This document shows positions 32,598-63,725 of a stretch of 64,000 nt of DNA, in pieces. The first letter of the stretch is position 1, and the number at the start of each line of letters is the position of its first letter. The translations under genes were made by a program, and so were the position numbers. Below the pieces are notes generated by a model. That model did not search any database. It saw only the letters and a list, made by a program, of their open reading frames with translations, and was not told where the DNA came from. The stretch comes from Leucoraja erinacea (taxonomy: Eukaryota): the NCBI RefSeq assembly GCF_028641065.1, contig NC_073401.1, forward strand, positions 23,126,001 through 23,190,000, read 5' to 3'.

Positions 32598-33127
32598 TCA
32601 GAAATCAACTGCTCTTAATTTCTTCATCTCTGCCTCAGTGAGTGGTTCCTTATTTAGCAATCGATTATGCAATTTTGCATGCTTGCCGATACCGAGTTTA
32701 GGAAGTCCACGGTTCAGTCCCTCCAACAAAACGCAAGCCTTGCAGAGTCCTTGGCTAGAAATGTAACCACACCGTGTGCACGTGCCTTGTGTGGGCATCT
32801 TCACATCCTCCTTCACAGAGAGGTTTTCACCAGAGTGAATCACATCCATAATAGCACTTGGCCGTATTGACTCCAAGTCTTTCAGGAAAGCACGCGCATA
32901 GCCCCTGTATGCATTAGGGGAATACACACATTCAGTGGAGAAGTAGTCCAGCTTTTTGAAGTAAGCATACAGCACTATTTCTTTCTCATAAGCATACTTG
33001 AGAGGTTTGCAACGAGGAATTGCCCCTTCACTATCCGTGGTAATTGCTGTACAGCGGCGCAGTCGAGCAATGTCTCCACGCAGGAAATTCATCAAGACGG
33101 TCTCAGCAATATCATCTGCATTGTGAC
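32598..33127 (-). CDS. CTU1: Cytoplasmic tRNA 2-thiolation protein 1, last coding exon
   Basis: Acceptor CATGCTCAG|GT completes [20 protein letters not shown]; [20 protein letters not shown]; C-terminal CxxC...CxxC; TGA stop. 496+530 nt gives 341 aa. Confidence 0.97.
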
Positions 33128-34148
33128 CTGAGCATGAAAGGAATAAAAGGAAGGTGCGGTTAATCGTTTAAACACACTGGTACACTTGTTCCTGGATGGA
33201 TGGATGCATTTCATCTACACGGCAGTTCACCTCTAGCTGGTCTTCAAAGTAAAAATAGTCAGACTATTAAGCCATCAGAGTACATAGAATTTTGGGAAAG
33301 CAGTGTTGGTGTGAAGTACTGGATTAGTTGAGGTTCAGCCATATAATATGATCCCTGTCAGATTAAGACTACACAACTAAAATAAATTTTTTTAAATCTC
33401 AAAAGCCTATCTGCACAAATATTTTTGGTGCCCATGTCTAAAATTAATTGTGAAAGCAAGCTTTGAGCATTCCATTATTTGATTATTTTCTATTTCTGTC
33501 CTTTAATGCAGAAATATTTCCAAAGCTTTAGTATCCCATTTATGCCGATGACATTTTACATTATTTAATCCAGATTTAACTGTAATTTAATGTAATGAAT
33601 GATTCTGGGAAGATTCCCCAATGTTAAAGCAAGTGCAAAATACTGTTGCTAAAACAGTGTAATTATCACCAAGTGGATCTATACCAGTAAATTTCCAGTT
33701 AGCCGGTTTGCTTCCATGTTTGTGGGGGAAATAACAAGTAAAGTGGACGATGAAGGACGAGAAAGATTAACATATTCCAATGGGTTTGATTTGGGGAGGA
33801 GAGGGTGGAGATAACAAATAATTCTACACATTTAATAGCTAGCATAATATGGAAACTGGCATAAATATAGAAGCAAATGACATTTAACAAAATAAGGCTC
33901 GAACTAATGTTAAAAATTACTTAGACTTTAGAAAAGAGAGAAGAAAATGTTACAGTAAGAACTATTCTTAAATTGAATCTACTCAAATAAAATAAATGGG
34001 GTTGTTCAAAATCTCATTAAAAAGATTAGAGGGGTAGAGATAGGAGAAATATATTTATTCAATGGAACTGGATCAAAGTCCCAGCAAATATTTTGAAACC
34101 ACTCAAAACGCATGCTTGTAGGAATGTAGGAAGTTATCAATGCCTTAC

Positions 34149-34644
34149 CTGTGCAGACCTTGTCTACTTTCAGCATCATGGCCCCACGATCAAGAGCTTG
34201 CCGTCTGAAGACCCCACAAAATGTGCAATTGTTCTTCAAACCAACTTTCCTCACAATCTGGTCCATTGTCCAGCCGTATAACTCTTCGTAGGAAATAATC
34301 TTCAGTGGCAGATCATACTGTTGCTGGTTTCTCTTTACTGTCTCCAAGGAATCATCACGATAACCACTGATGCCTTCGTCCACAGAAAGCAGCATCAGAT
34401 TTAAGCCATAATTATATCGATCATTTAAGACTTTCAAAACATGAGCTAGAACAGTTGAGTCTTTCCCACCAGAAGCCCCAATTCCAATGGTCTCTCCCTT
34501 CTGGAAAAGCTTGGCAGATACGATCATCTGATGCGTCTCCTCTTCGAAAGCCCAGAAAAAGCACTCTTTGCAGAGGGTGTGCCCTGTTTTGGGACGCCTG
34601 AGAACTGCTGCATTCTTGCCACAGCAGCTGCAGTGAACCGGCAT
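34149..34644 (-). CDS. CTU1: CTU1, first coding exon (exon starts at 34656)
   Basis: Acceptor TTTTTCCAG|ATTAGCTTCGAC ATG; MPVHCSCC...LCKECF, PP-loop [18 protein letters not shown]; phase-1 donor ACAG|GTAAGG. Confidence 0.97.
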
Positions 34645-34856
34645 GTCGAAGCTAATCTGGAAAAACAGCCAAAATGACTTGTTATGCGAGGCGCAACAAA
34701 GTAAAACGGAGCTTAATTGGAAATACAAACACATGGACTTTGTTCATCTTATTAGGAGCTGCACTGCTACTAGTGCCATGACAACTAGAGTCACAAATCT
34801 AGACCGATTGCTTTGGTTTGATTAGGAGGTTTGTAATTAGGAGGCAGCCAAGACCC

Positions 34857-42868: not shown

Positions 42869-43663
42869 ATGTGGTTTCTGACTGTTTTGCCAGCTGCTGA
42901 GAAATGCCGCTTGCTGAAGCAAATCTGCAGGAACTATTATTCAGCCATTGCTTCTAATTTCCCATTTGTTCCTTCTTGCCTTCCTTTGGACTCCATCGAA
43001 TTGGAGGATCTTCAGGAATTTCTGTTTCAGTCTAAGAAGCTGTTTGTGCTATCTGGAGCAGGCCTGTCAACGGAATCTGGTATTCCTGATTATCGCTCGG
43101 AAGAGGTTGGACTTTATGCTCGGACAACAAGACGGCCCGTTCAGCACCATGCGTTTGTCTGCTGTGCCAAGAGTAGGCAGAGATATTGGGCACGAAATTA
43201 TGTTGGCTGGCCACAATTTAGTTCGCGCCAGGCAAATGAAGCACACAAAGCTCTGAGTAAATGGGAAACAATAGGGAAGCTGCATTGGCTGGTGACCCAG
43301 AATGTGGATGCTTTGCACACAAAGGCAGGTAGCCAGTACTTGACAGAACTTCATGGCTGTACACATAGCGTGATCTGCCTTGGCTGCGAGAAGATAACAC
43401 CCAGGAGTCACCTTCAAGATGAATTTGCAGCTCTGAACCCTAATTGGTCTGAAGAAACACAAGGAATATTTCCAGATGGAGACGTTTTCCTGGCCGATGA
43501 ACAAATCAAACATTTCAATGTTCCCTCGTGTAAGAATTGTGGTGGTATCCTGAAACCCGATGTCACCTTTTTTGGAGACACAGTAAATAAAGAGAAAGTT
43601 AATTTTGTGTATGAACGTTTGACGGAATCTGATGCAGTTCTGGTGGTCGGCTCTTCTCTACAG
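42869..43663 (+). CDS. SIRT4: Mitochondrial NAD-dependent sirtuin 4, first coding exon
   Basis: Acceptor TTCCTAG|ATG; [41 protein letters not shown], catalytic ELHG, Zn ligands CLGC and [14 protein letters not shown]; donor CAG|GTGAGT, phase 0. Confidence 0.97.
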
Positions 43664-44148
43664 GTGAGTGGCTGAAATGACCAAAGACTTTTTATTGAAT
43701 ATGTTTGGATAATTTAGATAGATTGAGGAATATTCAATGGAAGCAAGTTATAACCAAAGTTATTTATGGTTTGAAGAGGGAATTCCAGGATTTAGGAACA
43801 GTGACAAAAAAGGAAAGGTGATAATATTTTTAAGTCAGGATGATGTGTCACATGAAAGAGAAACTACAGCTTGTAGTTTTCCATTGCCTGAAGCACTTGA
43901 CACTCATGGCAACAGCAATTGCAGCTTTGGCTCTTGGAATAGCTGTGCAGACTTGGTATGTAGGTTGTGGAGGGAATAATGTCTAGGGTGTGATGAGTGG
44001 GATGCCAGTCAAGTGGGCTGATTAGTCTTAGCTCTGTAAGGAATTTAGATCGTACCTTAGAGTTGGGTTCAGACACATTATGGATTGCACATGTCTGGCA
44101 GTGGCTTCAAACTGAAAATAATTAACTTTTTATGTTCTTTGTTAATAG

Positions 44149-46500: not shown

Positions 46501-49500
46501 CAAATGACCTACTGCTTTGATTTAGGTGTTAATGATTAAAACTGTCAAAGGCAACTGCAGAATCCTACAATTAAAAAAAAAACACCACCATGAGCATATT
46601 TCACATTCACCTCAATAAGTAGAAGAGAATATGTGGGTGGGAGGAAGGAGGAGGTGGGAATGGAGGCTCATTCTAACATCTCGTCTGAAAAACAATTTCA
46701 TAGAAATTGTTTACACAGAAGGAAGCCATTTTCCTCTCAAGCTTCCTTAATTTTAAGTGTATTATAATTCGATTCACCTGAGATTTCTCTTTCTCATATT
46801 TTCTATTTCAAATACTTGTTCAGATATGCTCAAGATATCATTAGAAATTTTGCATCAATAGCCATTTGTGCTTTGAGTTCTACATGCATTAAATTGCTTA
46901 ATATTTTCTCAGACCCTTTTCCAATAGTTATCCTCCATTTTCTTGCTATTGATGAAAAAGCCTTTCATGCTTCCAGAAACCTGAATAATTGGAAAACCTG
47001 AGATCACTACGAAGTTTTAATGTCCCCAAATCGACATATAAATATCTACTGATTCCTTAATCATTTTAGAACCGTGAATAGTTCAGTACTCATCTAAACA
47101 TGATGGAATGCTAGCCAAATACACGTAACCTGTGCTAATAATTTGATCCCATCAACATTCTGGTGTATCTGCGCTATATTCTTCCTAAGGCCAATATTTA
47201 TCTTCTGTGTTCAATAACCAAAGAAAACATACCACCCTGACCAAGGACCTGAACAACTGAGAGCTTACAAGAAGACCACTGAAACATCTACATGCATTTG
47301 TCTATGTATTTTAATTCAAAACTAAATTTTATTCCAATCCAAATTATAAAGTTTTTTAATAATTCCAATTAATCTGTTGCTACTGACTATGAGATTAAGA
47401 GGGATGAATTAAATCAGAGCAGACATTAATGAATTTTGTGCTCCGTCACATTTGGATTTTATTTGTGAGAAGTGCAGGACCTGCCTGCACAGAAACAATA
47501 CTTAAACTGAGGACCTGGTTCATCAAATGTGATCAGAATAATATACTTGCATGAAGAGTAATCTTCATCATTCTTGGGTGGGGTGAATGTTCTTTCTTTG
47601 TGGTGTAATACTTATCTCATCCCTACCCAAACTGTTCCCGCAGGCGCCACTTTATATTGTCATTAATAAATGACTGAATAACCAGGAATAGTACAGCAGG
47701 TGGACTCAATTTACTGCTCCTCCTCTCCATGATGGCAGCATCTAATAATGCATTCACCCCCCCTGATCAACCCATCTTAGAATAGAGATTGGTCATTAAA
47801 TAACCACTTGATGGCACTATAGAAAAGTATCAAAAATACAATTTTAAAGTCTACTGACCAATAACTTTGGAATCCAAGAATTGTAGACAGAAACAAAAAA
47901 ACAGTACAAACTATAGCAATTGAAAATGAGATATGTCTCCAATACCCTGATACCTGTAGTTGGAAGACGGGATATATGTAAACTAAACTTGTATATTCAC
48001 GAACAGGAGTCTCAGGAATAAATTGACACAAATATAGCAGTGCCGTAATGTCAAGAACACTGGTAACTAAGTTGTAAAGAAAAGGAAAATCCAGTTTTTG
48101 GCACATTCATCTTTGTTATCGGGCTGACTTTTCCAGTTTTAATTAAACTTACTGTTTCTCAACAAAACAAATGAGCCTGTTTACTAATGTTTAGAAGGGG
48201 ATACAGGTGCTTTAATATATTGCAGATAATTTAGGGTTTCCATTAAAAAAAAAGACGTTACAAACAGCTGCCTATAGACATTAGACACTATGCATGCTAA
48301 ATGTACGATATACACAGTGCTAATGCTAAACCAGAATTCACAAAAGTGATTTGCAAGATTGTGACATTCTTGATACAGCTTTCTCACCTTTCTGAGCATT
48401 AAAGTTAACCTTTGTATTTCAGGAAGCAATGGTTGAAATTGGTGAAATTGGGTCAGAGCTTTTAAAGAGATCTCTCTGCCGCGGGCATCCCCAACAAACC
48501 CCAGCTCTGCAGCAGGATCACGTCTGCAGATCGAGTGATCCATGTATGATATTTTCCAGCACACAGAAGCTGGATTTTACATTAAAAATGGACGTGCTAA
48601 TGGTGGGGTATCACTTGAAATCATGTATAGTTCATTTTCAAGATGAATGAATGCCTTGTTTAATCACAAGTTGTAAACATGGATCATAAGTTGATACTTA
48701 TTGAGCATTAATTTAAATAGCCACTAACAGTTCACATTTTAACTTGTATGAGATACTGTTGGGAAATGACACCAGTGGAGGACGAATTTCAACCGGAATT
48801 GTCTGGTCCAATTTCCCTACTTGTAGGAACACACAATTCCAAACAAGTGCAAAACAATCTGTATGCATACTTAGTGCATAAAGAATATGTGCATTTGGTG
48901 CATTTCCTACATTGCATACATCACTGCAAGGCAACGGAGCGAGATATTCACTACACACTTTAAATTTAGAAGAAATGATTCACAAGGGTGCTAAATCATC
49001 ACATAGTAAATTTAGATAATCATTACGTTATTTTTTGGAAATCCTTGTTATAACAATGATGGGAATGGCTTTTGACAGATGAGTTTTACACAGGGCTCGT
49101 ACCGTCCTTGAAAGACCTGGAATTTGAAACTGTTTTTCAAGACCTTGAAAGTACTTGGATTTATCAAAGGTCCTTGAAAAGGTTTTTTAATGACACGTAT
49201 TCATTCATGCAGAGTAATGTGGCGTATTTTCATCAAGTTTATAATGCACATTTTAAATTAAAAGTCGGGAAACATTGTTAGATACGTTTGCCTTTGTCGC
49301 CTATTTACCTATTTTTTGCCTGCTTTGTCGCTGAGAATAAAGACACTGAAGAATTAGGAATGTGTGTCCTGTCTGGTATTCATTTACGAATATGATCTTG
49401 AATTACGGGCGCACACAGAAAGATCAAAGGAACTGCCAATTGACAAACATCGTTTTTTTCTCCCAAACTTTCAGAATAGCTGGCATGAGAACAACTCACA

Positions 49501-50945
49501 GGCTCCCCAAGTATCATACAGTAATGAGGAGTAAAATCTGAGCTTCAAGCTCATGCAGGTGGTTCCAATAAATAGGGGGTGTGGCTTCAACTGTCTGGAG
49601 TTTTCTGGGTGTACAGAAAGCATTAACTGCACTGCTGCAGCACTTCTCTCTCTCCCTCTCTGAGTGTGTGAAAGCTCACACACATACTGCATGCACAATG
49701 CATTTCCCATATAGAAGGCATGCATGCACCATGGAGCAGGAAATGTCTAGCTCCATGCATGCACTGTACTGTGTGCATGCACTATGTACGCGTGTATGTA
49801 TGTCTATGAACACCGGACAATTTCATTTTCTCTTACAGGGATGTGCAAGGTACAAGAGTAGAGTAATACACTGCTGGTAATATAATGAAAGTACTCTGCT
49901 AAATGTTTTCTCTACGAAAATGATGTGGAAATGACATCTTCCAATAAAATAAGAAAGTAACGACTATAGCAAATCTTATATAAATCCTCTGGCATATGGA
50001 ATAAATCTACTCATGCACCCCTCTGCTGAATGTATCAGTCTCTACTGATCTGCAGCTATGACATACATATTCATAAACTGCCAGATTGCTTGTGTGTATC
50101 ATACCACATCAAGAACCTTTTTTTTTCTTATGCTGACGCCTAATTACTGATTGGAGAAGACTCGGAGTTGGAGTGAGAAATGATCATGCAACAAGTCATG
50201 ACAGCCATGAAAGTTCACTCCAGTCACTGACCGAGATTTCAGTAAACAGCAATGCCGGGAAGTTGTGTGCTTAACACCAGATGGATCCATGATCCAAAGT
50301 ATTAAGAGTAGATTGCTAAAGGTGACATACATCATGCTAAATGTCAACCCTGTCATAAGACAATAGACTTGACCAGCATGGGTGAATCGGCGCTCACTAG
50401 TCATGGAAAAGGAACTAAACACCAAAAGTTATTAGCTAACTTACGTGAAGAAAACCGGAACAAGCATCATTCTTTACAAAAGAGTCAAGTAGTAAACCTA
50501 CTTCAGGCTCAGCCGCACCAGCAACTGCCCATGAACCACCAGATGCACCGTTTTGATCCTCTTTCAACTCGGGGACTACGTCAGCAAACCCCGTGCACAA
50601 TCACTCCAGCATCATTTGCGAGCAACACGGATACATTAAAAGCCAAATTACGGTGGGTATTGAAACAAGTGACAGCACACAATAGTTAAAAATCATCCGA
50701 GGACGCAGGTGAACTGTTCAGGATGATGTTTCCTGATGGCGAGAAAGCCTACGGGTTTCAGTGTGGTGAGAAAAGAACCTCCTATTTATCCGTCTTTAAT
50801 GATTTGTTGACATCACGTGTAAAAGCACAAGATCATTATGTCCTCCTCTTCGACGAGTTGCTTAACTCCAAAACGCACAAGCAGATGGACATATATGTCA
50901 GACTGTGGCATGGGGACAGAATTGTTTCCCTTTTCCTAGGATCCT

Positions 50946-51071
50946 GGGGTGGAAGATTGCAACCTTCACGTGGTCTGCCCGGTTTCGACCAATGCAATCA
51001 ACCCAGCGTGCACAATCAAATAGAACAAGTTGTCCTACAACTTTAGGCTGTGCATGCCATATGCAAGAAGA
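50946..51071 (+). mobile_element. 126-nt retroposon (copy 2): minimal HDV-like ribozyme head (50946-50999) plus Vingi/ingi-like tail
   Basis: Perfect 10-bp TSD CCTAGGATCC (50935-44 and 51072-81); removing it restores the transposase reading ...VSLF-LGSQFMGH; the element starts at ribozyme G1 after one extra T. Confidence 0.88.
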
Positions 51072-51278
51072 CCTAGGATCCCAGTTTATGGGGCATGGAT
51101 CATCTGAAATCATGCTGGAAAAATTCCTTATGGGTCTCGGTGATTTGCCATTGAGGAATCTAGTGCAAATCTCTATGGATGGACCAAATGTCAACTGGAA
51201 GTTTCACCGCCTGTTACAAGCAGAGGTAGGCTAGGTCTTGTTCATAATTTTTCATAATTATTTCATATTGGTCTAGAT

Positions 51279-52270
51279 CAGTGGTTCTTAACCTGGGGGT
51301 CGTGACCCCCATGTGGGTCATTTGGGGTTTTCTGGGGGTCATGAAGGGGTTGTAAATATTGTTGAGCCGATGTTTAGGAACCTAACAAAGGTACATACCA
51401 CACACAGTATTTTGTTCTCATCTGTGCGTATGTATACACAGGGCCTATGAGAGGTGGGTGCAGAGGTACAACGTACCCGGACCCGGAGTCCAAAAGGGGG
51501 CCCGGGAATTTCCTGAAATCTCAGAAAATGTTTGCATATATTTTGTGAAGACTAACATTCATATCTTATGTAAGCCTACATAGTTTTATACAGGCACGGA
51601 AATGGCTATCAAAACATGGGGGACACACACACAATTTCTTGGTGGCCATGCGCGCGCATGAGCACACACACGAGGCTTCGGCCATGGGCCCTGTGGACGG
51701 TAACATCGGGAGCTGATCAGGTTGGTAGACCGACTCCGAACTCCAGCAACAGCAGCTTCGTCCGCCCCGAATCCGCCCATTCGCGGGGCCTTTCATCGGG
51801 AGCCTCGATGCAGCAGTTTGATTTTAACCCCGCCGGGCGCTGAAAAGCCCCGCGAATGGGCTGATTCAGCCGTTAGAAAGCGTCTGATAAAGTGCACATT
51901 ACAAAACATTGGGTGGGATTGCCCCCTCGCCCCCCCCCCCCCCCTCAGGATTACCGCCCATGGTTTTATACACCGTAATTCGTAGAAATTGTGATCTATA
52001 ATAAAGCAGGGAATTTTAACAAGCGGGTGTGTGGTCGGGGTAACCTGATTAAAAGAGGGAAAAGGGGAAGACCCATCACTACTGAGGTTCCCTGTAGGAG
52101 GGGAGCACTAGGACCTAACAGAGTCAGACCACGTGCTGTCAGCATGGTGGAGGTTGTGGGCCAGTGCTGCATCTGGAGCTCTGGTGAGTTGACGGCTCAG
52201 GCCCGCTGGTGGCTGGTGGAGAGGCGAGGGTTGGCGGAGTCGCTGGTCGAGGCCCGTGGTGAGTCGAAGT
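51279..52270. mobile_element. Nested non-autonomous DNA-transposon fragments replacing the central part of the hAT transposase
   Basis: Charlie-type start CAGTGGTTCTTAACCTGGGGGTCGTGACCCC at 51279; second CAGGGCC-type start at ~51439; GC-rich hairpin 51769-51867; right boundaries unresolved. Confidence 0.5.
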
Positions 52271-53927
52271 AGAGATACATGGCCAGGCCACTGTAGAAGG
52301 TGGCTTTTCAATCAATCGTTAAGTGGAAACTGACAACCTCAGTTGCTGCACAGCGTATTATCTGTGACCATGCAGCATCGGTCGGTTACAAGAACATAGA
52401 ACTGACAAAATCATTGCTTCTTTCAGCTTCCAGTGCACACCACAGGTATATGGCACACCTTGATGATAAGCAGAAAGCCAAGAAGAATGTGACCATGCAG
52501 CAAAAAAGAAATGCTTTGATGGCAGAACTAGATCAGATGAACTGCAAGAAGAGGTGTTTGGAAGAAGACATCAGGGCATTAACAGAGAGTGCTGATACAT
52601 ATGCTGAGAAGGCAGAAACATCAAGAAGCTTCACCATGATCACCAAGTCCAACAGCATGTGCAGATCTGCCAGTGAAAATAGTGTTGAGCTGAAAAAAGT
52701 GCAACAAAACATAGAAGACAAACTCACTGAAATAAAAAACTTCTAAAGAAGAGCTTGAAAAATGAAATAGCAAAGTTTTCCATTATCATGGTTTCAGATT
52801 GAACAACTAAGAGATGTGAAAATGGTGCTCTATTGAAGTACGACTATAGATAACTTAACCATCTTTTGTGTAATTATTATGTAGTTTAGTGTCGTTCCGT
52901 GCAACCTGGGCTAATGAATTGACTGATCACCTTCTCAGATTTCCCTGAAAATCAGTGTTTGTACATCAGAGCACACAACAGAAAACAAGGTCTCAACTCT
53001 AAATTTCAATGGGCATTTGGCAATAATTCGAGTTATATCAATGGTTCATAACTTCAAAGGAACCTTGAGTTGAAAGTTGATTTTTTTCTGCAGTTCTTTG
53101 TACAGGGTACCAGAGGTGTGCAAAACATGATTTTCAATCAAATCTGAGATGGTGACCAGCCAACCTTCTTATTTACTTTTAATTGGTACAGAATCAAATC
53201 ATCCAATATCAAGCAATTTATATACAAGTCTCTGATAAGCCATCAATGTTTGCTGGATTTTTGTCCTTGAAAATCGGATTTTTGGACCTTGAAAGACCTT
53301 GAATTTATAGCTGTTCCAAGTGTACGAACCGTTTACATTAAAGAGGATATCACTTTAAATCATGTAAATCACACTTCCAATATGGCTTTTTTAAAAATTA
53401 TGTGCTGTTCACACCGGTCATATGTATTTCAAGGTTTGTTATATTTAAAATCCAAATTCTCTTCCCATGCTCTCCACCTCGGAGTGAAATAGCTATAACA
53501 AACAATGTCGAAAACTCAAGGGCATTTAAAGATATATACTGCATCTACACATGACTGCCATGTTCCCAAACAAAAAGTTAGAAATATTGAACTTTGCAGA
53601 CTAATAGCTTGGGATTATTTAAAGCATCGTAAGTAACAAGATCATTCTGAAAACTAGCACTGCTCACTGAGATATGTAACCATTGTCTTATGTTAAGTAG
53701 AACAACAGACGCTGCCATATTACCTGCACAGGAAACCATTGCTGGTATAAAAATAAGGACCTTTTCCTTACATTTTTGGTCTTCAGCAGTAATGATTGGT
53801 TCAATGACATGGATTCTCAACCGCTTTCTACCAAAATGAAAATTCCAAAAGACGACTCCTTTTTGATTCAGTAGGGTTCTCTGGTTAGAGTCAGTAATTC
53901 CAGGGACGGTTGAAGGCATTGCCTCCC

Positions 53928-54126
53928 TCATGGGCTCCCTGGAGGGGTGGCAAATCCTGAGCTGTCACTGTCACTGACGGCTGGAGATCGTGGAGCACTC
54001 TCAACAGGGCTCTTAGCATTACGAAATTTATCTAACAAAGTTGTATTAAAGGCAGATGCAGGAGTGCTCATTTCCCCTTGAGCTGCATTGTCCTTGGGAG
54101 TTTTGGATGGAGTCCCACCAGGAGAT
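53928..54126 (-). CDS. PRR11-like proline-rich protein, coding exon 6 (last)
   Basis: Acceptor CTCTTTTAG|A; (R)SPGGTPSKTPKDNAAQGEMSTPASAFNTTLLDKFRNAKSPVESAPRSPAVSDSDSSGFATPPGSP*; phase 2 matches exon 5. Confidence 0.85.
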
Positions 54127-54838
54127 CTAAAAGAGGAGGCGACAGGAATTAGTAAAGTGCATTGAGTGGAGAATAGTTACTAATAAATGACGTGCATTAA
54201 AGCAATCTCGACCACATATAGGCAATAAGTACCAGGTGAGGCATGCTTATTGATTGGGGTCTGGCCACACCACCATAACTAAATGTAGCGTGGGTTGTGG
54301 TGACGGAGAGGGTTCCATGGGTGTGAGGTTGTTCCGATCGCTGGCCCGATGGTGTGCATTTTCCCCCTCCAGGTACCTACTCGCCTTCTCTCCCTTCTGT
54401 GTGAGACCAATGTTGATCTAATGGTAGCTACCACCCTCTCTAATGCACTCAATGTATAACAAATGAAGAGAAGGACTCCAGGAAATTGATGGTATCTGAA
54501 TGACCCAAGTCCTTTTTATAAAATTCAAACTTGGGGTTAAAGCATTAATAATTAGATACTTGGAATGTTCGGACTCTCCAACATAATGTCAGAAAGGCTT
54601 TATATATCTCAAGAAAACAGAAGCAAATATTTCTGTGGACAGTTCTATCACCTATTAATATGGCACTGTGTGAAAGTAGAACCTATCTATTCACTTTTGC
54701 AGCTCACAGAATTATACAGCACAGATATGTCCTTTGGATCACCATTCTATGCCAGCCATGGTGCCCATCTATACATCGCACTTACCAGCATTTGATCTCT
54801 GGCCTTGTGTGCCTACATTTAAACATAAGTCTACATAC

Positions 54839-54952
54839 CTGTCCACCCCTGTTGAACGAAGCCTCTGAAAATGGTTTGCAGCCAGCAGCTCAGAGTAGAT
54901 ACTGACAGGATGACGGTTGTCGGCATTTCCAGTGTCTCTCAGGTCCCCAATA
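54839..54952 (-). CDS. PRR11-like protein, coding exon 5
   Basis: TTTTTAG| ... AG|GTATGT; 114 nt, phase 2-2; (S)IGDLRDTGNADNRHPVSIYSELLAANHFQRLRSTGVD(R). Confidence 0.8.
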
Positions 54953-55609
54953 CTAAAAACAGATTAATTAACAAAGTAAATTTGAGCAGCCACCAAAAAC
55001 ACATTATAATCAGTGGGAACAAAGATGGTTATTACGTTTCAGAAATCGAGTTTTAATCTTTCTTGTTTTGTACACAACGATTCAAGCTCATTAGTAGCAA
55101 CGATTTTAAGATACTTAACGATTTTAAGATACCGAGTAAGTGACAAATTATTTTAGGTACCAGCCAATCTACCATGTTCTTCAACCGAAGAGACTAAGTC
55201 TATATTCTAAAGTTTAGAAGAATGAGGTGTCTAGAATCAGGTATCAGTCTCAAATGAAGCGTTGAACAATCACAAAGATGAGAATGTTATGCATAGAATT
55301 ATGGAATTCACAGTCCAAGTGGCAAAGGTAAATCGCCCAAAGAGCAAGTGTTTCTATCCGAGGTTTATACAAGTTCCCCTGGCAGTAAATGGCTCCAAGA
55401 GTTATGAATTAAAAGGTCCTTGGTATAGTTCCAAATACCTAGTTAATAAAATTTGAACCTGTAGCACATTGGGTTTCTGTTAACCTCCCATGACTTCCCC
55501 ACTCCCAAAGGGATCTGGAATCGTGGAAGTACCACTTTAGTCTGCAGGATTCACATTTTTCATGTTTGGCAGTGCCATGGATGTATCAGATTACATTGGA
55601 TAGCTGTAG

Positions 55610-56290
55610 GAAGGAACTAGATGTTGGTGTACACCGAAGATGGACACAAAATGCTGGAGTAACTCAACGGGACAGGCAGCATCTCTGGGAAGAAGGAATG
55701 AGTAACATTTTGGGTTGAGACCCTTCTTTTCCATAAAAATGCTTAAAATGCTCGACACATCAGGCAGCATCTATCAGAGTACATGTATTACTGCTTGGTA
55801 CGCAATGTTTTGCCTTAGTTAAATCAGCAGCATAGGTTATTGCAAAAACAGCTGAGCAATGGGTTTTACACTCCAAGTATTTCCCTGGCTGTGCAGCAGC
55901 GACCCAATGTAGACACAAAATGCTGGAGTAGACCTTTCATTTTTTCAGAGTGATACAGCATGGAAACTGACTCATTCGGCCAAACTTGCCCATACATGTC
56001 CCAGCTACACTAGTTCCACCTGCCCATGTTTGCACCATATCCTACCAAACCTGTCCTATCCATGTGCCTTAAAGATTGGGATAGTCCCAGCCTCAACTAC
56101 CTCCTCTGGCAGCTTGTTCCATACACCCACTACCCGTTGTATGAAAAAGTTACCCCTCAGATTCCTATTAAATCTTTTCCCCTTCATCTTAAACCTATGT
56201 CCTCTGGTCCTTGATTCCCCTACTCTGGGCAAGATTCTGTGCATCTACCCAATCTATTCCTCTCACGAGTTTATGCATATCTCATGACTT
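55610..56290. mobile_element. Penelope-like terminal-repeat pieces (55610-55775, ~55910) and CR1 3' end (55945-56290, minus)
   Basis: GACACAAAATGCTGGAGTAACTC...GAGACCCTTCTT; minus ORF SRTRGHRFKMKG...FFIQRVVGVWNKLP. Confidence 0.75.
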
Positions 56291-57491
56291 TGTACACAAA
56301 TCAGGTTTTCTGTTTCAGTTTCAGATTTAGAGCACTGTTTGCTCGGGTGCTGAAATGTTCAAGGCTAAAAACACCAGGTTTTGACAATGGAATTAAAAGG
56401 TTTGGGGATAACATGAATTTGAGGTAACAGATCAGGCACAATCGTATTGAATTGCAGAGTAGGTGTGAGGGACTGCTGGCTTCAATCTCCAGGTTATCAT
56501 AATTCTTCCATAACATGAATGTGTGTGTGATTTTTCCAAATCGTAACATTACATACATCTTCCATTATTTACATAGAATATTTCCTTAAACTGAATTTTT
56601 GTAAAACATTAAATTACACTAATTTTATGCTGGATATCCACCTTTACCATTAAACTCATATCCAGAACCGATACTCTTTGATCCACTCATTTTTACCATA
56701 TTCATTAAGAACTTTCACTCCACTAGGGACACAAAACCATGGATATTTTCATTCAGATGTATAATGTAGTTGTGTGAGCAAAGTGTTCAAGGATTACCGT
56801 GCACACAATTCATACTGACTCGTGACATGCACTATCTTGGCAAGTTCAGAATATTGTTTTTATATGCTATAATTTTAATGTCATTTTCTTATTTTAAATG
56901 TGGGAGATATACAAACTGCATTCTATTAGGAGTGCTCCTAGCCACAATTAACCTCCAAATTGTTTCCTTCACATAATTGCAATCTCCACATTCTTGCCTT
57001 AAGAGCATCGCTCATCTTTTCAGTTATTTATTCCTACACAGTGTCTAACACGATGCAACAAAGGATTTGTATTTATAAAGTCAGAGCAACTTTGTAACTG
57101 ATTCTATTTATTTTTGTGATAACCCGCTATACCCAAGTCCTTATATAAATAAACAAGTGTCAATATTGGCTCACTGGTGATAAAACTGTGTTCCAAGCAC
57201 CAAGTTTTAATGGAAAAGAAAATGAATGGGAGCATATGTTTAAAGTTTGCCCTTAGCTATCATGTGTTTGTGGAATAGTGGGATGCACTGATCCAAAAGG
57301 CTTCAACGCCTTGATGTTGTTGCTCTTTATGGTCAGTGACATTGAACAGCCTGCACTGGTTAATTGTGCCCCCATGTTGCACACTGACACAACTGACCAC
57401 CAGTCATGTTCATGTGAGAAACGCCAACGGTTTAGCTTCAAATGTTAACATGTAGTAACTATGCTTCAAATTAAATGTTGCACCCTCTCAC

Positions 57492-57568
57492 CTTTTCGAA
57501 CGTCGATTCAGTCTGGCCAGTCCATAACTCTCCAGTAGGTCTGGGGTTGCCATGACCATTTGTCCTTC
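57492..57568 (-). CDS. PRR11-like protein, coding exon 4
   Basis: CTCATCTTGCAG| ... AAAG|GTGAGA; 77 nt, phase 0-2; EGQMVMATPDLLESYGLARLNRRSK. Confidence 0.8.
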
Positions 57569-58085
57569 CTGCAAGATGAGAGAAAAGCAACAGAGACGGC
57601 ACTTTAAATTTATCAAAGTAGTTGTGAAGCACTTGACCCAAGGTGCGTGATTTTTCTTAAAGTCAAAAACGCAAAACTTCCCAGCTCCTTCTGGCAAGGT
57701 CTACTTTTCTTTCCAGGGCATTCATTTTTTCTGAACACAAAACTTTGGGTTTGTCAATACAGGTGACCCCATATTATGGCTGTTCAGACAACAGAAATTC
57801 ATATATCACTACCCAAAAATTTAAGATATAGAATAAAATTCGCTCTCACAAAATTTAAGTGAAAAAAGTAAAATCAACACAAATTTATTTATTTAAACTC
57901 ATGTTTCTGACATTTGTGTAGATGACGTGGTTTTGTGTTACAGGTAATTGCTATCTGGAACATTTCCTAGCAACGCAACCTCATTGTGATGTGGGGTTTG
58001 CCTGCAACCGCTCCCACGCCACACCGTCAGCCACTAAGCTAAAACAAAATGCATTTGTGGTTTTGCTTCAAGCATGGCTACTTAC

Positions 58086-58327
58086 TGTGCAGAGGTTGGA
58101 CTTGTCTTTCAGAGGGGTTTTGAGCGGCAGATTACGGAAGGATAGAATTGGTAGTGGTGGTGGTGTTGGAGGAGGAGGGGGAGGGGGAGGAAGAAGAGGA
58201 GGGGGAGGAGCAGGAGGAACCGTAGCAGCCAATACAGGTCGGCAGGAACCCGTCTTTGTAGAATTCTCGGCCTGCTCCTTCTGCCTCTTTTCAGCTAGTC
58301 GCTTAGACGTTCTTGGTCCTTTGGCCT
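58086..58327 (-). CDS. PRR11-like protein, coding exon 3 (polyproline)
   Basis: TTTTATAG| ... ACA|GTAAGT; 242 nt, phase 1-0; (E)AKGPRTSKRLAEKRQKE...PPAPPPPLLPPPPPPPPTPPPLP...KTPLKDKSNLCT. Confidence 0.85.
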
Positions 58328-58352
58328 CTATAAAACACAAACATCCCAATGA

Positions 58353-59935
58353 ACTGGAGTCAATTATTAAAGAGGTAATAATGGGGCATTTGGATAGCAG
58401 TAAAAGGATTAGTCCAAGTCAGCAAGGATTTATGAAAGGAAAATCATGCTCAGCTAATCTTCTGGAATTTTTTGAGGATGTGACAAGTAAAATGGGTGAA
58501 GGGGAGCCAGTGGATGCAGTGTATCTAGACTTTCAGAAAGCCTTTGATAAGGTCCCGCACGGGACACTGGTGACTAAAATTAGAGCACATGGTATTGGAG
58601 GTAGGGTGTTGACGTGGATAGAAAATTGGTTGGCAGACAGGAAGCAAAGAGTAGGAGTGAACGGGTCCTTTTCAGAATGGCAGGCAGTGGCGAGTGGAGT
58701 GCCGCAAGGCTCGGTGTTGGGGCCGCAACTGTTTACCATATATATTAATGATTTGGAAGAGGGAATTAGGAGCAACACTAGCAAGTTTGCGGATGACACA
58801 AAGCTGGGTGGCAGTGTGAACTGTGAAGAGGATGTTAGGAGGTTGCAGGGTGACCTGGACAGGTTGAGTGAGTGGGCAGATGGGCAGATGCAGTATAATA
58901 TAGATAAATGTGAGGTTATCCACTTTGGTGGCAAAAACAAGGGGTCAGATTATTATCTCAATGGGGTTAGGTTAGGTAAGGGGGAGGTACAGCAAAAACA
59001 AATTAAGGGGGCCAGATTATTACCGCCATTCAAATGATCATGGGGTTAGTATCCCGTTAGGTACCCCCTGATCCCCTTAGGGAGGGTACATCTAACTCCC
59101 TCTTAAAAGACTTGTGTGTACCCTCTGTTGTACAGTTCCAGAGATTCACCACTCTCTGTGTGAAAAAAGTTGGCGCACAGGTTTTAAAGCATCCTTAAGC
59201 TGTGACCCCTTGTCCTGGACTCCCCAAATGGAATCCTGGCCTTCATAACAATTTTGTAAGTTTCTTGGGTGTCCTTTCAGTGAAAGTTGGGAGTACAGCA
59301 GGCAGAGCTAATGGGTTCTTCTAACAAGAGGATTTGTATTAGGGGTTCTTCTGCTGTTTAGGGCTCTGGTAGACCACATCTGGAGTATTGCATACAGTTT
59401 TGGTCTCCTAATTTGAGGAAGGACATCCTTGTGATTGAGGCAGTGCAGCGTAGGTTCACGAGATTGATCCCTGGGATGGCGGGACTGTCAGATGAGGAAA
59501 CATTGAAAAGACTAGGCTTGTATTCACTGGAGTTTAGAATGATGAGGAGATATCTTATAGAAACATATAAAATTATAAAAGGACTGGACAAGCTAGATGC
59601 AGGAAAAATGGTCCCAATGTTGGGTGAGTCCAGAACCAGGAGCCAGTCTTAGAATAAAGGGGAGGCCATTTAAGACTGAGGTGAGAAAAAACTTTTTCAC
59701 ACAGAGTTGTGAATTTGTGGAATTCCCTGCCACAGAGGGCAGTGGAGGCCAAATCACTGGATGGATTTAAGAAAGAGTTAGATAGAGCTCTAGGGGCTAG
59801 TGGAATCAAGGGATATGGGGAGAAGGCAGGCACGGGTTATTGATTGGGGAAGATTAGCCATGATCGCAATGAATGGTGGTGCTGGCTCGAAGGGCCAAAT
59901 GGCCTCCTCCTGCACCTATTTTCTATGTTTCTATG
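58353..59935 (+). mobile_element. CR1 LINE, 5'-truncated, with a scrambled segment at ~58995-59355
   Basis: QQGFMKGKSC, YLDFQKAFDKVPH, SGVPQGSVLGP.LF.IYINDL, KFADDTKLGG; 3' tail TTCTATGTTTCTATG. Confidence 0.92.
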
Positions 59936-61029
59936 AACTCTGAATATCAGTGGTGCCTAAATCAATGAATGGTGGCTGTGACGCTAATAAGGTCATGCAG
60001 AAAATACACACAAAGGGCACCAATCAGTTTACGCTCAGTCATTGTGGCACTATCACATTGGAGATGTTGGCAAGTTTGATTAACCTGGAGGGAAATTACA
60101 GCATGTGGTCACTGGCATGCCAATTTTCATGGAGAGGTGATGCACTAAGATAGATGGAAGTGGGATTCGTCTCAAAGCAAGGAGGGGCTGAATAACCGCC
60201 TTTCATGTCATACATTGCTGAGAGATTTCATAATTAGAACAAATCCCAATAAATAAAATAAAATCAAGGAAAACTAAAATATTTGCTCTCTCCAAATGCC
60301 TAAAGATCAATAATTTCTCAATATCCATTATATATTGGTCCCTCAATTACTTCATTTCAGTGTCATATAGTTCCGTCCCAACAGCATTTGAAGAGAAAAC
60401 ATGCTTCCGTTGGATGTAACTTGTTTAACACGAAGTGTCCAACAGAGGGTCTCCTTACCGAGAGGAAAATGCCTCAGCCCCAAATACATCATCAAAAAAA
60501 GTCGTCCTGAGGACTAATGTGAAGCACATCACACATAGTACACCAGTAACACCACTTATCCGTGCTCATACATAGAGAAAAAAACACACCATTCCAGTGC
60601 AGGGATTTAGCTTTCGCTCTGCATATGGAGAAAGGCTTCAGCATTTAAGACGTGCCTTTTGGTTATTGCAGAACTGCAAACCAATTCATGAAGATTTCTC
60701 CTAATAACCATCTTAGCTCCCATTTCAATTTGTTTTTGTTGTATAGCTACTGCAATGAAAACATTTGGAAATAAAATGCTGATGTTAGCTTCACTCAAAG
60801 AGTGTGCCTTGAAGTGGTGAAACTAGGTGTCCTCTAAATACGAGAAGGCGTCTGTCTATTTTGTTAATCCACAAAGAAATATTGTGATGATCGACAACGC
60901 TTTTGGATGGGTTTTCTGAATATATTTGATTTCATCAGCTAAATTCACTTGTTATGCCATAACCTTTGATCAACTTTCTATTGAATTGTAAACTGAAAAT
61001 CTTCCCAATTCTTCTTTCTAATGTCCTAT

Positions 61030-61355
61030 GATCACCGTCGGGGTTCGGCGTCAGCGTTCCACCAGCCCGGCGTGAGGGCCTGAACATCGGGCCACCCGGG
61101 GCGGCGACTGCGGGTGCTCGGAAGGCCCCGACCACGGATGGACACGGAGGGGAGGCTGGCTGGACAGCCTTCCCACCTGGGTGCCATTTATGTATGTTGT
61201 GTTGTGGATCAGAATATTTCAATTTTATTTTTAATATGTTTTATTATTTAATTTTCATTAATCTTGTGATTTTTTTTAACGATACTGCCTGTACGGGAAA
61301 TTCATTTCGTTGTCTCAAAGTGAGGCAATGACAATAAAATTTGAATACAATACAA
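61030..61355 (+). mobile_element. Non-autonomous retroposon with GC-rich head and GACAATAAA+(ATACA)n tail
   Basis: CpG-rich 61035-61180; tail ATTTCGTTGTCTC...ATGACAATAAAATTTGAATACAATACAA resembles that of 26756-27187. Confidence 0.6.
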
Positions 61356-61641
61356 GAATACGTATTGAACAGTCTGGATAAACAGCTGCAGCCCCGATAA
61401 TCAGAATACATAAAAATCAGAATATTAATATACCCTGACTGTACACCACACTACATAATCCTGAATTGTTTATGTACAGTCAATGTTTGCCAATTACAAG
61501 GGAAAAATGTGACTACTTTCATGCATATTGCAAGCAAACCATCACATTCTTCCAAACATACTCCTAAATTGCCTACCTATCTCCTCATTAGATTGACTTG
61601 AGATTGAAACTTTGACAATCCATTAAGAATAGCAATCTTAC

Positions 61642-61765
61642 CACAAGCATACATCTGCACTTTCGTCATCTCGTCCTTCAAACCTTGGAGTCTTTCTTGT
61701 AACTCATCAATTTCAACAGCATTGCAGCGGTTCATTTTACCATCCACAGCTGAGAAAAATTTGGC
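61642..61765 (-). CDS. PRR11-like protein, coding exon 2 (predicted coiled coil)
   Basis: TTTCTTTACAG| ... TGTG|GTAAGA; 124 nt, phase 0-1; AKFFSAVDGKMNRCNAVEIDELQERLQGLKDEMTKVQMYAC. Confidence 0.85.
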
Positions 61766-62299
61766 CTGTAAAGAAAGTGTTCATGTTTAATAATTCCAGA
61801 CAAGTTTAATAGTTCTGCATTTATTGCTAACCTTGCAACATTTAATGTGGGAAACGAACAAATTAATGGAACATAGTAATTCAGAGGTCTACCCTCCACA
61901 AAGGCCTAGGCACTAATAATAACGCATTTAAACAGTTTTTAGTACAGGTAGTATAATTTCTCAAGGCACTTCATATCAATGATATTTTGATTACAAAAAA
62001 CCCATTGGACACAGATGCAATGAAGATCTTGACTGCAGTTGCATCACAAGAACATAGACAGAGAGAATACTCAAAACCATAAATTACACAAATTCTACAA
62101 AACAATGAAATAAAAATAAATACACAGAAAAAGGGATTATGCAAAAATGTATAAATTGAACGTCTTTTTTGTTACCTTCAAATGTCAAGGAGAGAGTTGG
62201 TGAGCGGCCATTTTGAAGGACAGAAACCTTTTTTGAAAACTAAAATTGGTAGGATGGTTGCAATAAAGACCAAAAAGATGATAGGAGACTTGTTAGTTA

Positions 62300-62715
62300 G
62301 TGGGAGAAGTTGGACAGACGGATTGTTTTCTCTGTAACACTGGAGGTTGCGGGGAGACCCGATAGAAGTATATAAAATTCAGTCTTAGACAGGATAGACT
62401 GTTAGAAACTTTTTCCTACCAATGGAAAAACTTTTTCCCACCAATGGAGCTGAGCAAAGTTTAAAACAGGTGTGCAGGGCAACATTTAAAGAAAAAAAAA
62501 AAGAGGATGTGAAATGCTGGAAAATGACATTGTGGGTGGAAATTCAGGCAGGTACAACAGTGGCATTTAAGATACATTTGGAGAGACATGTGGATGTGCA
62601 GGGATTGGAGGGATATGGATTATATACAAGGAGATAAGAGGTAGCCTTGGCATCATTTTTGGCACAGACATTGTGGGCTTAAATGCCTGTTCTTGTGTTG
62701 AAAAGTTATATGTTC
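62300..62715 (+). mobile_element. CR1 LINE 3' fragment
   Basis: GGAGGTTGCGGGGAGACCCGATAGAAGTATATAAAAT (RLRGD.IEVYK); CR1 tail. Confidence 0.7.
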
Positions 62716-63017
62716 TAATTTTAAATTGTATTAGTAAAGATAAAGTGGAGAGAAAATAATAGACTAAAATCTCATGGTCTACGCCCAAACGAATATTTTA
62801 AAGAGATAGTTGTAAATAAAATAGGAGTTGTCTCATCGTCAAAAACTGTCAAGATTCTACAACTATGACCATGGTTTGGAGTAAATTAAATGACATTATA
62901 AATAAAGGAGAGACAAAATGGTGGGGGTTCTCAGTCACATATTAGAATAATAATTCTTTGAGTGGTTCCAAGTGTAACTGAAACAACATATCAACCAGCT
63001 TCTGATATCGACAGTAC

Positions 63018-63242
63018 CTTGATGAAAGATTTCAACCCAGCGTTCTCGAGTTCGGCTTGTTTGCGTTTGCGTACAACCTTCTCACACAACGATGGGTTCT
63101 GATCCATTGAGCGAAATAAGTCCTGCAGTGCCTTTTCTGTGTAAGTCATTGCCTCGATGTCAAATTCCTCTTTAGTCATACGTTTACAAAACATCTTACT
63201 CAGAGGATACTCTTGGTCAAATTCTTCCAGAGTTTCCATCAT
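63018..63242 (-). CDS. PRR11-like protein, coding exon 1 (exon starts at 63246)
   Basis: TCCACAG|ACCC ATG ATG G; 225 nt to AAG|GTACTG; MMETLEEFDQEYPLSKMFCKRMTKEEFDIEAMTYTEKALQDLFRSMDQNP...KSFIK. Confidence 0.82.
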
Positions 63243-63489
63243 GGGTCTGTGGACATGAAGGTGGCGGAAAAAGTATTAAAAGGGTAAGAATATATTGCAC
63301 ATTAGCTTCACACGTGCTCACTGACTTGTTTTCTTATCAAATCTCACTAGGGCATCACTTCAATGTAAATTACTCAATTACAACCAAAATCATATAAAGT
63401 TAAGGGAGTTATTGCAAAATTTAGAGCAGAGTTTGCCCATTATGTAGGTATGTTGAATACAGTGCCTCACACATATTGTAAATCTCCGA

Positions 63490-63725
63490 GGATAGACACA
63501 AAATGCTGGAGTAACTCAGTGGGACAGATAGCATCTCTGGAGAGAGGGAATGGGTGACGTTTCGGTTCGAGACCCTTCTTCAGATTGAGAGTCTGAAGTC
63601 TGAAGAAGGGTCTCGACCCACAACGTCACCCATTCTTTCTCTCCAGATATGCTGCCTTTCCTGCTGAGTTTCTCCAGCATTTTGTATCTATCTTGGGTTT
63701 AAACCAGAATCTGCAGTTCCTTCCT
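63490..63725. mobile_element. Fold-back Penelope-like terminal repeat with hammerhead cores on both strands
   Basis: ~95-bp inverted arms; flanking duplication ACACATATTGTAA(A/G)TCTC(C/T)GA at 63469-89 and 63726-46. Confidence 0.85.

Follow-up and report, generated by a model that had tools for sequence, protein, structure and literature searches.

Results

Gene Model and Transcript Support

The window, the 64-kb stretch of skate DNA that we analyzed as a whole, contains on its minus strand a gene with six coding exons (225+124+242+77+114+199 = 981 nt) that form a single open frame of 326 aa. All five introns have a GT donor and an AG acceptor, and the exon structure, phases, splice sites, and lengths given in an initial annotation of the locus were reproduced from the sequence. 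The span of 53928..63246 given there is correct for the exon ends but not for the coding start: the ATG is at 63242, and base 63246 is the first after an AG acceptor (63248-63247). As this base directly follows an acceptor, a further exon upstream of the ATG is likely, perhaps outside the window. The 3' neighbor within the window is SIRT4; the 5' neighbor lies outside it, past 64000.

Coding exon 1 (63018..63246; minus strand, as are all features below) holds codons 1-75 with the first half of an N-terminal domain and includes a segment at 63093..63206 (residues ~13-50) where relatives weakly match positions ~185-232 of the Pfam NEMP model. The second half of the domain, with a long helix at residues 94-119, is encoded by exon 2 (61642..61765). 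Exon 3 (58086..58327) carries an RxSxRL motif (58313-58296), a polyproline run (58217-58149), and the D-box-like KTPLKDKSN (58121-58095); exon 4 (57492..57568) the vertebrate motif ATPDLL..YGL; exon 5 (54839..54952) a WH2-like helix followed by LRST (54894-54847); and exon 6 (53928..54126) SPGGTP, an FNxxLLxKF helix (54050-54024), an S/T-P tail, and the stop codon. When single exons were compared with Pfam, nothing came near the cut-off. A probable 3' UTR follows at 53082..53927, reaching at least to 53082, and is covered by records 1 and 2 of run X1 (53082-53704 and 53717-54126), whose contigs give no strand.

The gene is real and spliced. P0001, a Logan protein from a 1789-nt contig, shares 321 of 326 aligned positions with the model and spans all five junctions, with one substitution in the 8-mer across junction 4, and the same frame was found in 11 more proteins from named sharks and rays. 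Run X1 consists of contigs, their RNA nature being guessed by a program, and lends support through exon coverage and depths, splice joints not being among the matches listed, where SINE/LINE repeats dominate. Its record 8 covers 63017-63228, and a 624-nt contig stops exactly at the exon-6 acceptor 54126, its other 214 nt mapping elsewhere. In the bins of exon 5, exon 4, and part of exon 2, depth is the product of contig depth and exon length (1.50, 1.01, and 0.84, respectively), and intron bins free of repeats have zero depth. X1 contigs thus cover exons but leave introns bare, whereas a contig of run X14 over 53854-55641 is unspliced. Coverage of the coding exons was close to nil in the single-cell run X20, and a run search with the gene gave no RNA run among the matches listed. 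The few X22 reads on exons 4-6 had first mates on the minus strand, an orientation opposite to that expected for a minus-strand gene in the usual stranded library.

Orthology to Mouse Todr1

The gene is very probably the cartilaginous-fish orthologue of mouse Todr1 (2610318N02Rik). The fish protein is 46% identical to mouse P0321 over 117 aa of the N-terminal domain (E 1e-35), and the names RIKEN 2610318N02 and LOC70458 appear among the family matches. P0321 is 305 aa long, consistent with the 918-nt Todr1 ORF of PMC8784585, and 76-77% identical to the galago and colugo proteins. A tree of the N-terminal domain (64 of 66 rows, P0012 and P0146 being omitted as too short, and mouse not being a row) follows the species tree, with amphioxus, then lampreys, then a single gnathostome clade (100/98) that includes the window-like protein together with pig, donkey, rabbit, and lemur. 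The mouse orthologue is a named gene, and relatives of full length occur in sponges and a choanoflagellate; this is not the PRR11-like orphan first proposed.

Three other candidate explanations were also discarded: a sole PRR11 orthologue, as the gene is the orthologue of Todr1; a low-complexity artefact, as the conserved core is nonrepetitive; and a gene born at the vertebrate genome duplication.

An Ancient N-Terminal Domain

The conserved part of the family is a helical N-terminal domain of ~120 aa that no Pfam family covers. It is present in a choanoflagellate, sponges, cnidarians, molluscs, amphioxus, lampreys, and most vertebrate classes, in total 337 cluster representatives at E<=1e-3, the named members including Acanthoeca, Ephydatia, Sycon, Nematostella, Montipora, and Hydractinia. 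The choanoflagellate protein is 29% identical over 123 aa (E 6e-12), and 61 of 99 partial matches stop at most 2 positions from intron 1 or 2. By sequence similarity, we place the origin of the family before that of animals. The initial annotation noted that the N-terminus differs from that of PRR11 but missed that it is the conserved core of a family. The predicted fold has pLDDT of 87-97 across residues 11-120, with helices at 24-48, 51-67, 70-83, and 94-119. A Foldseek search with the domain gave nothing at E<=1e-3, an Atlas search gave no usable match, and PDB sequence searches gave nothing significant; the best VIA matches (Z 6.3, rmsd 3.9, 62 aligned; Z 6.6, rmsd 10.3, 93 aligned) were generic helices. 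The lack of a clear match is no evidence of a new fold.

A weak but recurrent resemblance was to NEMP (PF10225). At E<=0.1, 20 of 109 members matched it (best 3.4e-4), every time around model positions 185-232, although related sequences here amount to a single trial. The domain's first helix and NEMP region B may have a common origin, and the protein could be a soluble RanGTP effector or nuclear-envelope adaptor whose N-terminal domain is a free-standing relative of region B, the tail being accessory. The position-consistent matches in lamprey, amphioxus, mollusc, and sponge members argue for this, as does the domain being the only part kept in mammals, where it is followed by a strongly basic stretch (104/111). 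NEMP region B binds RanGTP and BAF, but its halves do not bind Ran, according to the available part of PMC4422613, and the equation of positions 185-232 with region B is our own. The matches also cover just 30-50 residues of one acidic amphipathic helix, lie in the C-terminal third of the model with none on the membrane part, and peak at 20.8 bits against a cut-off of 28.7; mammalian and shark members gave none, P0001 having nothing at E<=1. We regard this alternative as unlikely.

Tail Motifs and Resemblance to MTFR

The remainder of the protein has the PRR11/MTFR-style tail seen by the initial annotation, with coiled coil, polyproline, helix plus LRxT, RSPGGTP, and LxxKF. Among 78 full-length members compared with shuffled sequences, RxSxRL was found in 58 (shuffle mean 3.9), RSPGGTP-like motifs in 58 (0), LxxKF in 68 (4.2), helix-LRxT in 54 (2.5), and D-box-like motifs in 35 (1.6), and the proteins have 10.6 S/T-P sites on average vs. 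6.2 in shuffles; KEN (13/78, shuffle maximum 12) is marginally enriched. As the patterns were derived from the family and the members are related, these counts speak of conservation only. The skate protein has 11 S/T-P sites, bearing out the many noted earlier, and two full CDK consensus sites; its D-box-like KTPLKDKSN is present as described, though with K instead of R at the first position.

Non-amniotes retain the polyproline/WH2-like/RSPGGTP tail, and mammals have remodeled it: among 111 mammalian proteins, RSPGGTP and D-box-like motifs are absent (0/111 each) and RxSxRL is found once (1/111), a K/R run taking the place of the latter (at least 6 K/R in 7 residues in 104/111), and MPRVFGP (102/111) and LNPGG (91/111) have been gained. 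The fish protein lacks mammal-type MPRVFGP and LNPGG, its tail being of the ancestral type. Pfam WH2 was not among the matches displayed in the scans of members (25 of 66 families shown in one of them), and the top-scoring actin regulator in the PDB search was leiomodin-2 (E 0.14), a match driven by polyproline.

RefSeq automatically names several shark and fish members as mitochondrial fission regulators, and a divergent MTFR1/2-like protein would also be consistent with the Atlas neighbors and with weak Mito_fiss_reg matches in 5 of 109 members (best 7e-4). These matches, however, are confined to the coiled coil and polyproline and never touch the model's N-terminal part (PF05308), where the TMEM11 and MIRO contact residues of MTFR are located according to the accessible text of PMC11980836, and the best score among the 109 members was 20.3 bits (P0001, 10.5) against a cut-off of 26.3. 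We find an MTFR identity improbable.

Probable Primate Loss, Hosted miRNAs, and PRR11

The initial annotation was right that humans have no intact copy, an absence already in print in the part of PMC8784585 available. Its argument from the 12q24 MSI1/DYNLL1/SRSF9 region misdescribes the human site, because the mammalian locus lies at 22q11 between SDF2L1 and PPIL2 (same source). What remains in the gibbon, orangutan, and macaque models is truncated or frameshifted. The frameshift was clear in macaque, with 21/22 and 11/11 residues matching once the frame is shifted (shuffle maxima of 12 and 7), a second stretch being marginal (18/30; shuffle maximum 17); it was also clear in gibbon (26/35; shuffle maximum 18), and in two orangutan stretches the signal did not exceed the shuffles. 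In the ape and Old World monkey models found, the Todr1 frame is disrupted. A literature search on pseudogenes near SIRT4/PLA2G1B found nothing usable.

An intron of mouse 2610318N02Rik contains miR-130b (PMC6914872). The miR-301b/130b pair is located at 22q11.2, with paralogues miR-301a/454 in SKA2 intron 1 at 17q22 (available text of PMC3744175). The 64-kb window holds no miR-130/301 hairpin, the first intron probably extending past its edge, and no Rfam family at the gathering score; weak miRNA-family matches at 63515-63669 stem from an inverted SINE pair. A literature search on NF-Y as a regulator of the host gene in mouse found nothing usable. If the locus were kept mainly as a miRNA host transcript, the protein would matter little, which would fit miR-130b in the mouse gene, a human locus still transcribed after the loss of the catarrhine frame, and a mild knockout phenotype. 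Against this, frames are intact, the shark and mouse proteins are 46% identical, the family has members in lineages that long predate these miRNAs, and the window holds no such miRNA; judged from this protein conservation, the idea is largely refuted for non-primates, and we give it very little credence overall.

The two miRNA loci also bear on PRR11. Todr1 and PRR11 could be ohnologues that arose from a single ancestral gene in the vertebrate genome duplications, Todr1 having kept the N-terminal domain and PRR11 having kept and extended the tail and lost a recognizable N-terminal domain. We take it that YPEL1/YPEL2 flank the 22q11 and 17q22 sites and that the tail motifs of the Todr1 family resemble those of PRR11, and counted both in favor. 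Paralogous miR-130/301 clusters at both loci (PMC6914872 and PMC3744175, as far as available) and a bidirectional promoter shared by SKA2 and PRR11 (PMC9775115) point the same way. On the other hand, the 17q22 miRNAs lie in SKA2 and not PRR11, the window has no miR-130/301 hairpin, and the PRR11 gene has ten exons and its protein a reported zinc-finger region (PMC9775115). No PRR11-named protein was found among 40 matches or among the 120 listed of 245; sponge and choanoflagellate members appear at E<1e-12 (most listed matches being unnamed, with 187 weaker ones beyond those listed); and, when clusters with a name are compared by language-model features, MTFR2 comes closest (0.76), which is no more than a lead. 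Literature searches on invertebrate PRR11 gave nothing usable, and those combining PRR11 with WH2, ohnolog, YPEL, or orthologs nothing relevant. On balance, we think the ohnologue relationship somewhat doubtful. It is compatible with the explanation that we favor below and transfers the idea of the initial annotation to another paralogon; amniotes would later have remodeled the Todr1 tail.

Discussion

Our preferred reading is that the gene is the Todr1 orthologue of a pre-animal family and likely encodes an adaptor, timed by the cell cycle, that works in stem and germ cells as they divide; we give this reading as a whole a probability of roughly 0.45, the identity being far firmer than the mechanism, which is somewhat more tentative than the whole. 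The predicted helical N-terminal domain would bind a partner and, as the one part conserved all the way between choanoflagellate and mouse, may be the essential interaction module. The RxSxRL motif could act as a basic nuclear or chromatin-targeting site switched by a mitotic kinase, and polyproline and the helix-LRxT motif could bind profilin and G-actin, the tail, which is disordered, probably acting as PRR11 does, whose proline-rich region recruits ARP2/3 (PMC8720695). S/T-P sites and the D-box-like motif would tie the protein's activity and its turnover to cell-cycle stage.

Mouse Todr1 is expressed in ES cells and HSCs, and the ectopic protein blocks myelopoiesis (PMC8784585 and PMC6223193, accessible text). 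A uterine table in PMC8967306 groups the gene with cell-cycle genes that follow a similar time course, which is weak support; against the cell-cycle reading, transcript levels in mouse testis increase toward the lumen together with those of spermatid genes, a post-mitotic pattern (PMC12832764). Homozygous knockout males exist, with a listed phenotype of -7% bone density (PMC7822523 supplement 2), and an essential mitotic role in mouse is therefore excluded. Yet all functional data come from mammalian proteins, in which the tail motifs are missing, and the mouse phenotypes need not reflect the fish protein.

A more far-reaching scenario, which we offer as a long shot, is an undescribed, soluble pre-animal family in which a RanGTP-sensing domain similar to NEMP region B is coupled to an actin module of polyproline and WH2-like elements, the whole being controlled by the cell cycle. 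Following the genome duplications in vertebrates, the actin tail would have passed to PRR11 and the N-terminal domain to Todr1, and catarrhine decay would have left a transcribed human remnant around miR-130b/301b at 22q11.

The gene was already annotated in RefSeq and its human absence published. Todr1 is one of two mRNAs whose DROSHA cleavage reportedly safeguards mouse blood stem cells, but neither a domain nor a function had been assigned to the protein, which was dismissed as lacking a human counterpart. We found no treatment of the evolution or structure of Todr1/2610318N02Rik in the open literature naming the gene, subscription papers, among them the original Todr1 paper, lying outside the search. 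What is gained is the placement in a pre-animal family and a well-predicted 120-aa domain open to testing; the tail kept in fish and invertebrates suggests the ancestor's role, and gene loss in primates would explain the difference between mouse and human.

Among known systems, region B of NEMP1/2 bears a weak likeness to the family's first helix, Ran binding by the family being putative. MTFR1/MTFR2 (PF05308) have coiled coil and polyproline in common with it and, presumably, a similar C-terminal motif. PRR11 is alike in the order of its tail elements, as the initial annotation described it, and in the proline-rich, cell-cycle, and actin links described in PRR11 papers; it seems to lack the N-terminal domain. 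In addition to its ten exons and zinc-finger region, PRR11 has an NLS and two proline-rich regions (PMC9775115), whereas the skate gene has six coding exons and probably one upstream, one polyproline run, and no zinc-finger Pfam match. Mouse Todr1 (GeneID 70458) shares with the skate protein the N-terminal domain, a similar length, and polyproline, and has a degenerate helix-LRxT and a final LxKF; its neighbors are Sdf2l1 and Ppil2, whereas the skate gene has SIRT4 on its 3' side.

Gene model and transcript support

The minus-strand gene at 53928..63246 is real, and it is the orthologue of a known mouse gene, Todr1. Re-derived from the window, its six exons (225 + 124 + 242 + 77 + 114 + 199 = 981 nt; a single frame of 326 aa), GT–AG introns and phases (0, 1, 0, 2 and 2) agree exactly with those of the initial annotation. 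The start codon ATG lies at 63242 with an acceptor four bases upstream, which implies an additional upstream exon. A search with exon 1 by itself returned 12 proteins. One, the database protein P0001, agrees with the model at 321 of 326 positions and spans every junction; the other 11 belong to named sharks and rays and are annotated as "uncharacterized", "hypothetical" or "mitochondrial fission regulator 1-like". The closest named protein, from Rhinoraja, shows 91% identity, which suggests that this cartilaginous-fish window is most likely that of a skate.

We compared four sequencing runs, possibly from a related species, with the window. In run X1, the ends of contigs and the depths per bin agree with exons 2, 4, 5 and 6 to two decimals, but the splice joints themselves are masked by repeats. 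Bins in repeat-free intron sequence were empty in X1 and in a second run, X22, which has few reads on exons and an orientation unlike the usual stranded library; a third, X14, crosses intron 5 unspliced. A LINE fragment with a reverse-transcriptase-like frame (58340–59940) lies in intron 2, abuts exon 3 and has dense repeat-read coverage. Two inverted SINE copies (63486–63712) form a 99-nt hairpin, 85% complementary, in the presumed first intron; its sole interest is that DROSHA targets Todr1 in mouse.

At lower coordinates in the window, a SIRT4-like gene on the plus strand has its first coding exon at 42869–43672 (SIR2, E 3.6e-48) and its probable last exon at about 48400–48500, tail-to-tail with the Todr1 gene. 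Between it and a minus-strand first exon near 12840, which four residues and a donor site lead us to take as PXN-like, is a minus-strand CTU1-like gene (32598–34743; PP-loop and zinc-ribbon matches); CTU1 is not known to belong to the human 12q24 block. No Rfam family reached gathering score across 1–64000, hence no U4 snRNA genes, whose human copies separate PXN from SIRT4. By eye, broken frames at 17367–18389 and 50312–52746 resemble Tc1-type and hAT-type transposases.

Orthology and range of the family

A profile of shark proteins found 40 relatives, among them proteins of chimaera, sturgeon, gar, bowfin, bichir, arapaima, coelacanth, caecilian, newts, lampreys and lemurs as well as amphioxus, mussel and whelk. 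Searched against 1.84 billion representatives, a wider profile gave 337 matches at E ≤ 1e-3 (150 listed), and 30 look-ups added sponges, cnidarians, a choanoflagellate, ratites, lizards, echidna, koala and placental mammals. A mammalian search (245 matches, 120 listed) included the mouse gene RIKEN 2610318N02 / LOC70458; PMC8784585 identifies RIKEN 2610318N02 as Todr1, with a 918-nt ORF on chromosome 16 between Sdf2l1 and Ppil2. Shark and mouse proteins share 46% identity over the first 117 residues, the N-terminal-domain tree agrees with the species tree, and each jawed vertebrate sampled has a single copy. Of 99 partial matches, 61 end no more than two positions from intron 1 or intron 2 and continue with V or G, the residues expected from the phases of these introns; the domain's exon structure is therefore old. 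This ancient family and its domain are undescribed so far.

The only teleosts among named matches are osteoglossomorphs, and zebrafish, frog, chicken, fly and worm are not named, most wider-profile matches being unnamed; repeated losses in model organisms are possible. The divergent proteins P0157 and P0131, with full architecture and canonical RxxLxDxTN motifs (P0157 also with two WH2-like repeats), may extend the family beyond holozoans. Salamander orthologues (P0023, P0025 and P0136) carry a Pro/Ser-rich insertion of ~600 residues between N-terminal domain and tail. Among the whale proteins (P0085, P0184 and P0075), the orca and sperm whale models are short or altered at conserved N-terminal residues and baleen models are full length, a possible second loss in toothed whales.

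Protein anatomy

AlphaFold2 (109 sequences) confidently predicted a four-helix N-terminal domain (residues 11–120, pLDDT 87–97), with the rest disordered apart from short helices at 239–245 and 281–294. The domain has no Pfam family at cut-off, and fold searches with it gave no clear match. The commonest weak Pfam match was NEMP (PF10225), which 20 of the 109 members gave at E ≤ 0.1 (best 3.4e-4). In every case the first helix pairs with the C-terminal part of the model, presumably region B, the segment that binds RanGTP and BAF according to PMC4422613. First helices of P0145, P0155, P0156, P0158 and P0070 match DUF7179 (PF23804) weakly, under cut-off (best E 5.8e-4).

The region C-terminal to the domain carries, in order, RxSxRL, polyproline, a D-box-like motif, a helix with LRxT, RSPGGTP and LxxKF, all of them much better conserved than in shuffled sequences; their functional labels are putative and go by resemblance. 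The tail of the fish protein is ancestral. The choanoflagellate protein has the motifs in the same order, RSPGGTP being absent, and mammals lack three of them and have others instead.

Probable decay in catarrhine primates

The proteins of lemurs, galago, colugo and tree shrew are full length; no monkey, ape or human appeared among the 120 listed of 245 matches in the mammalian search, which was led by five catarrhine models. All eight catarrhine models (siamang, gibbon, orangutan, macaques) cover 35–51% of the intact placental profile, against 97–100% in seven intact mammals, and a shifted-frame reading of macaque and gibbon stretches resembles the galago protein. Todr1 was probably lost in catarrhines. 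PMC8784585 describes a 331-nt ORF in the syntenic transcript of human, judged by its authors to be unlike TODR1; this transcript would represent a decayed orthologue. The initial annotation's absence from the human locus is right in substance and already in print, the locus being 22q11 rather than 12q24.

Relationship to PRR11 and proposed function

The gene had also been proposed as a PRR11 ohnologue. The family is older than animals, so an origin of the gene by vertebrate genome duplication is ruled out. PRR11 could still be a duplicate, having lost the N-terminal domain: miR-130b sits inside a Todr1 intron (PMC6914872) and its paralogues miR-301a/454 in SKA2, head-to-head with PRR11 (PMC3744175, PMC9775115), and PPIL2 is given as host of the human cluster (PMC8232258). 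However, no PRR11-named match occurred among those listed in the family searches, whereas sponge proteins score strongly, and PRR11's exon count and domains, as reported in PMC9775115, differ. We consider it rather unlikely that PRR11 and Todr1 are ohnologues.

For the Todr1 orthologue, the conserved domain may bind a partner and the basic stretch may serve as a phospho-switch; with a proline-rich, WH2-like, S/T-P-rich tail bearing a degron-like motif, these putative steps would fit a cell-cycle-timed adaptor linked to actin. Mouse Todr1 is described as expressed in ES cells and HSCs, its ectopic protein blocking myelopoiesis (PMC8784585, PMC6223193), which is compatible with a role in dividing stem cells. 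It is, however, also expressed in the spermatid zone (PMC12832764), and homozygous knockout males exist, with slightly lower bone density (PMC7822523). The proposed adaptor would resemble PRR11 through the latter's actin link, as described in PMC8720695.
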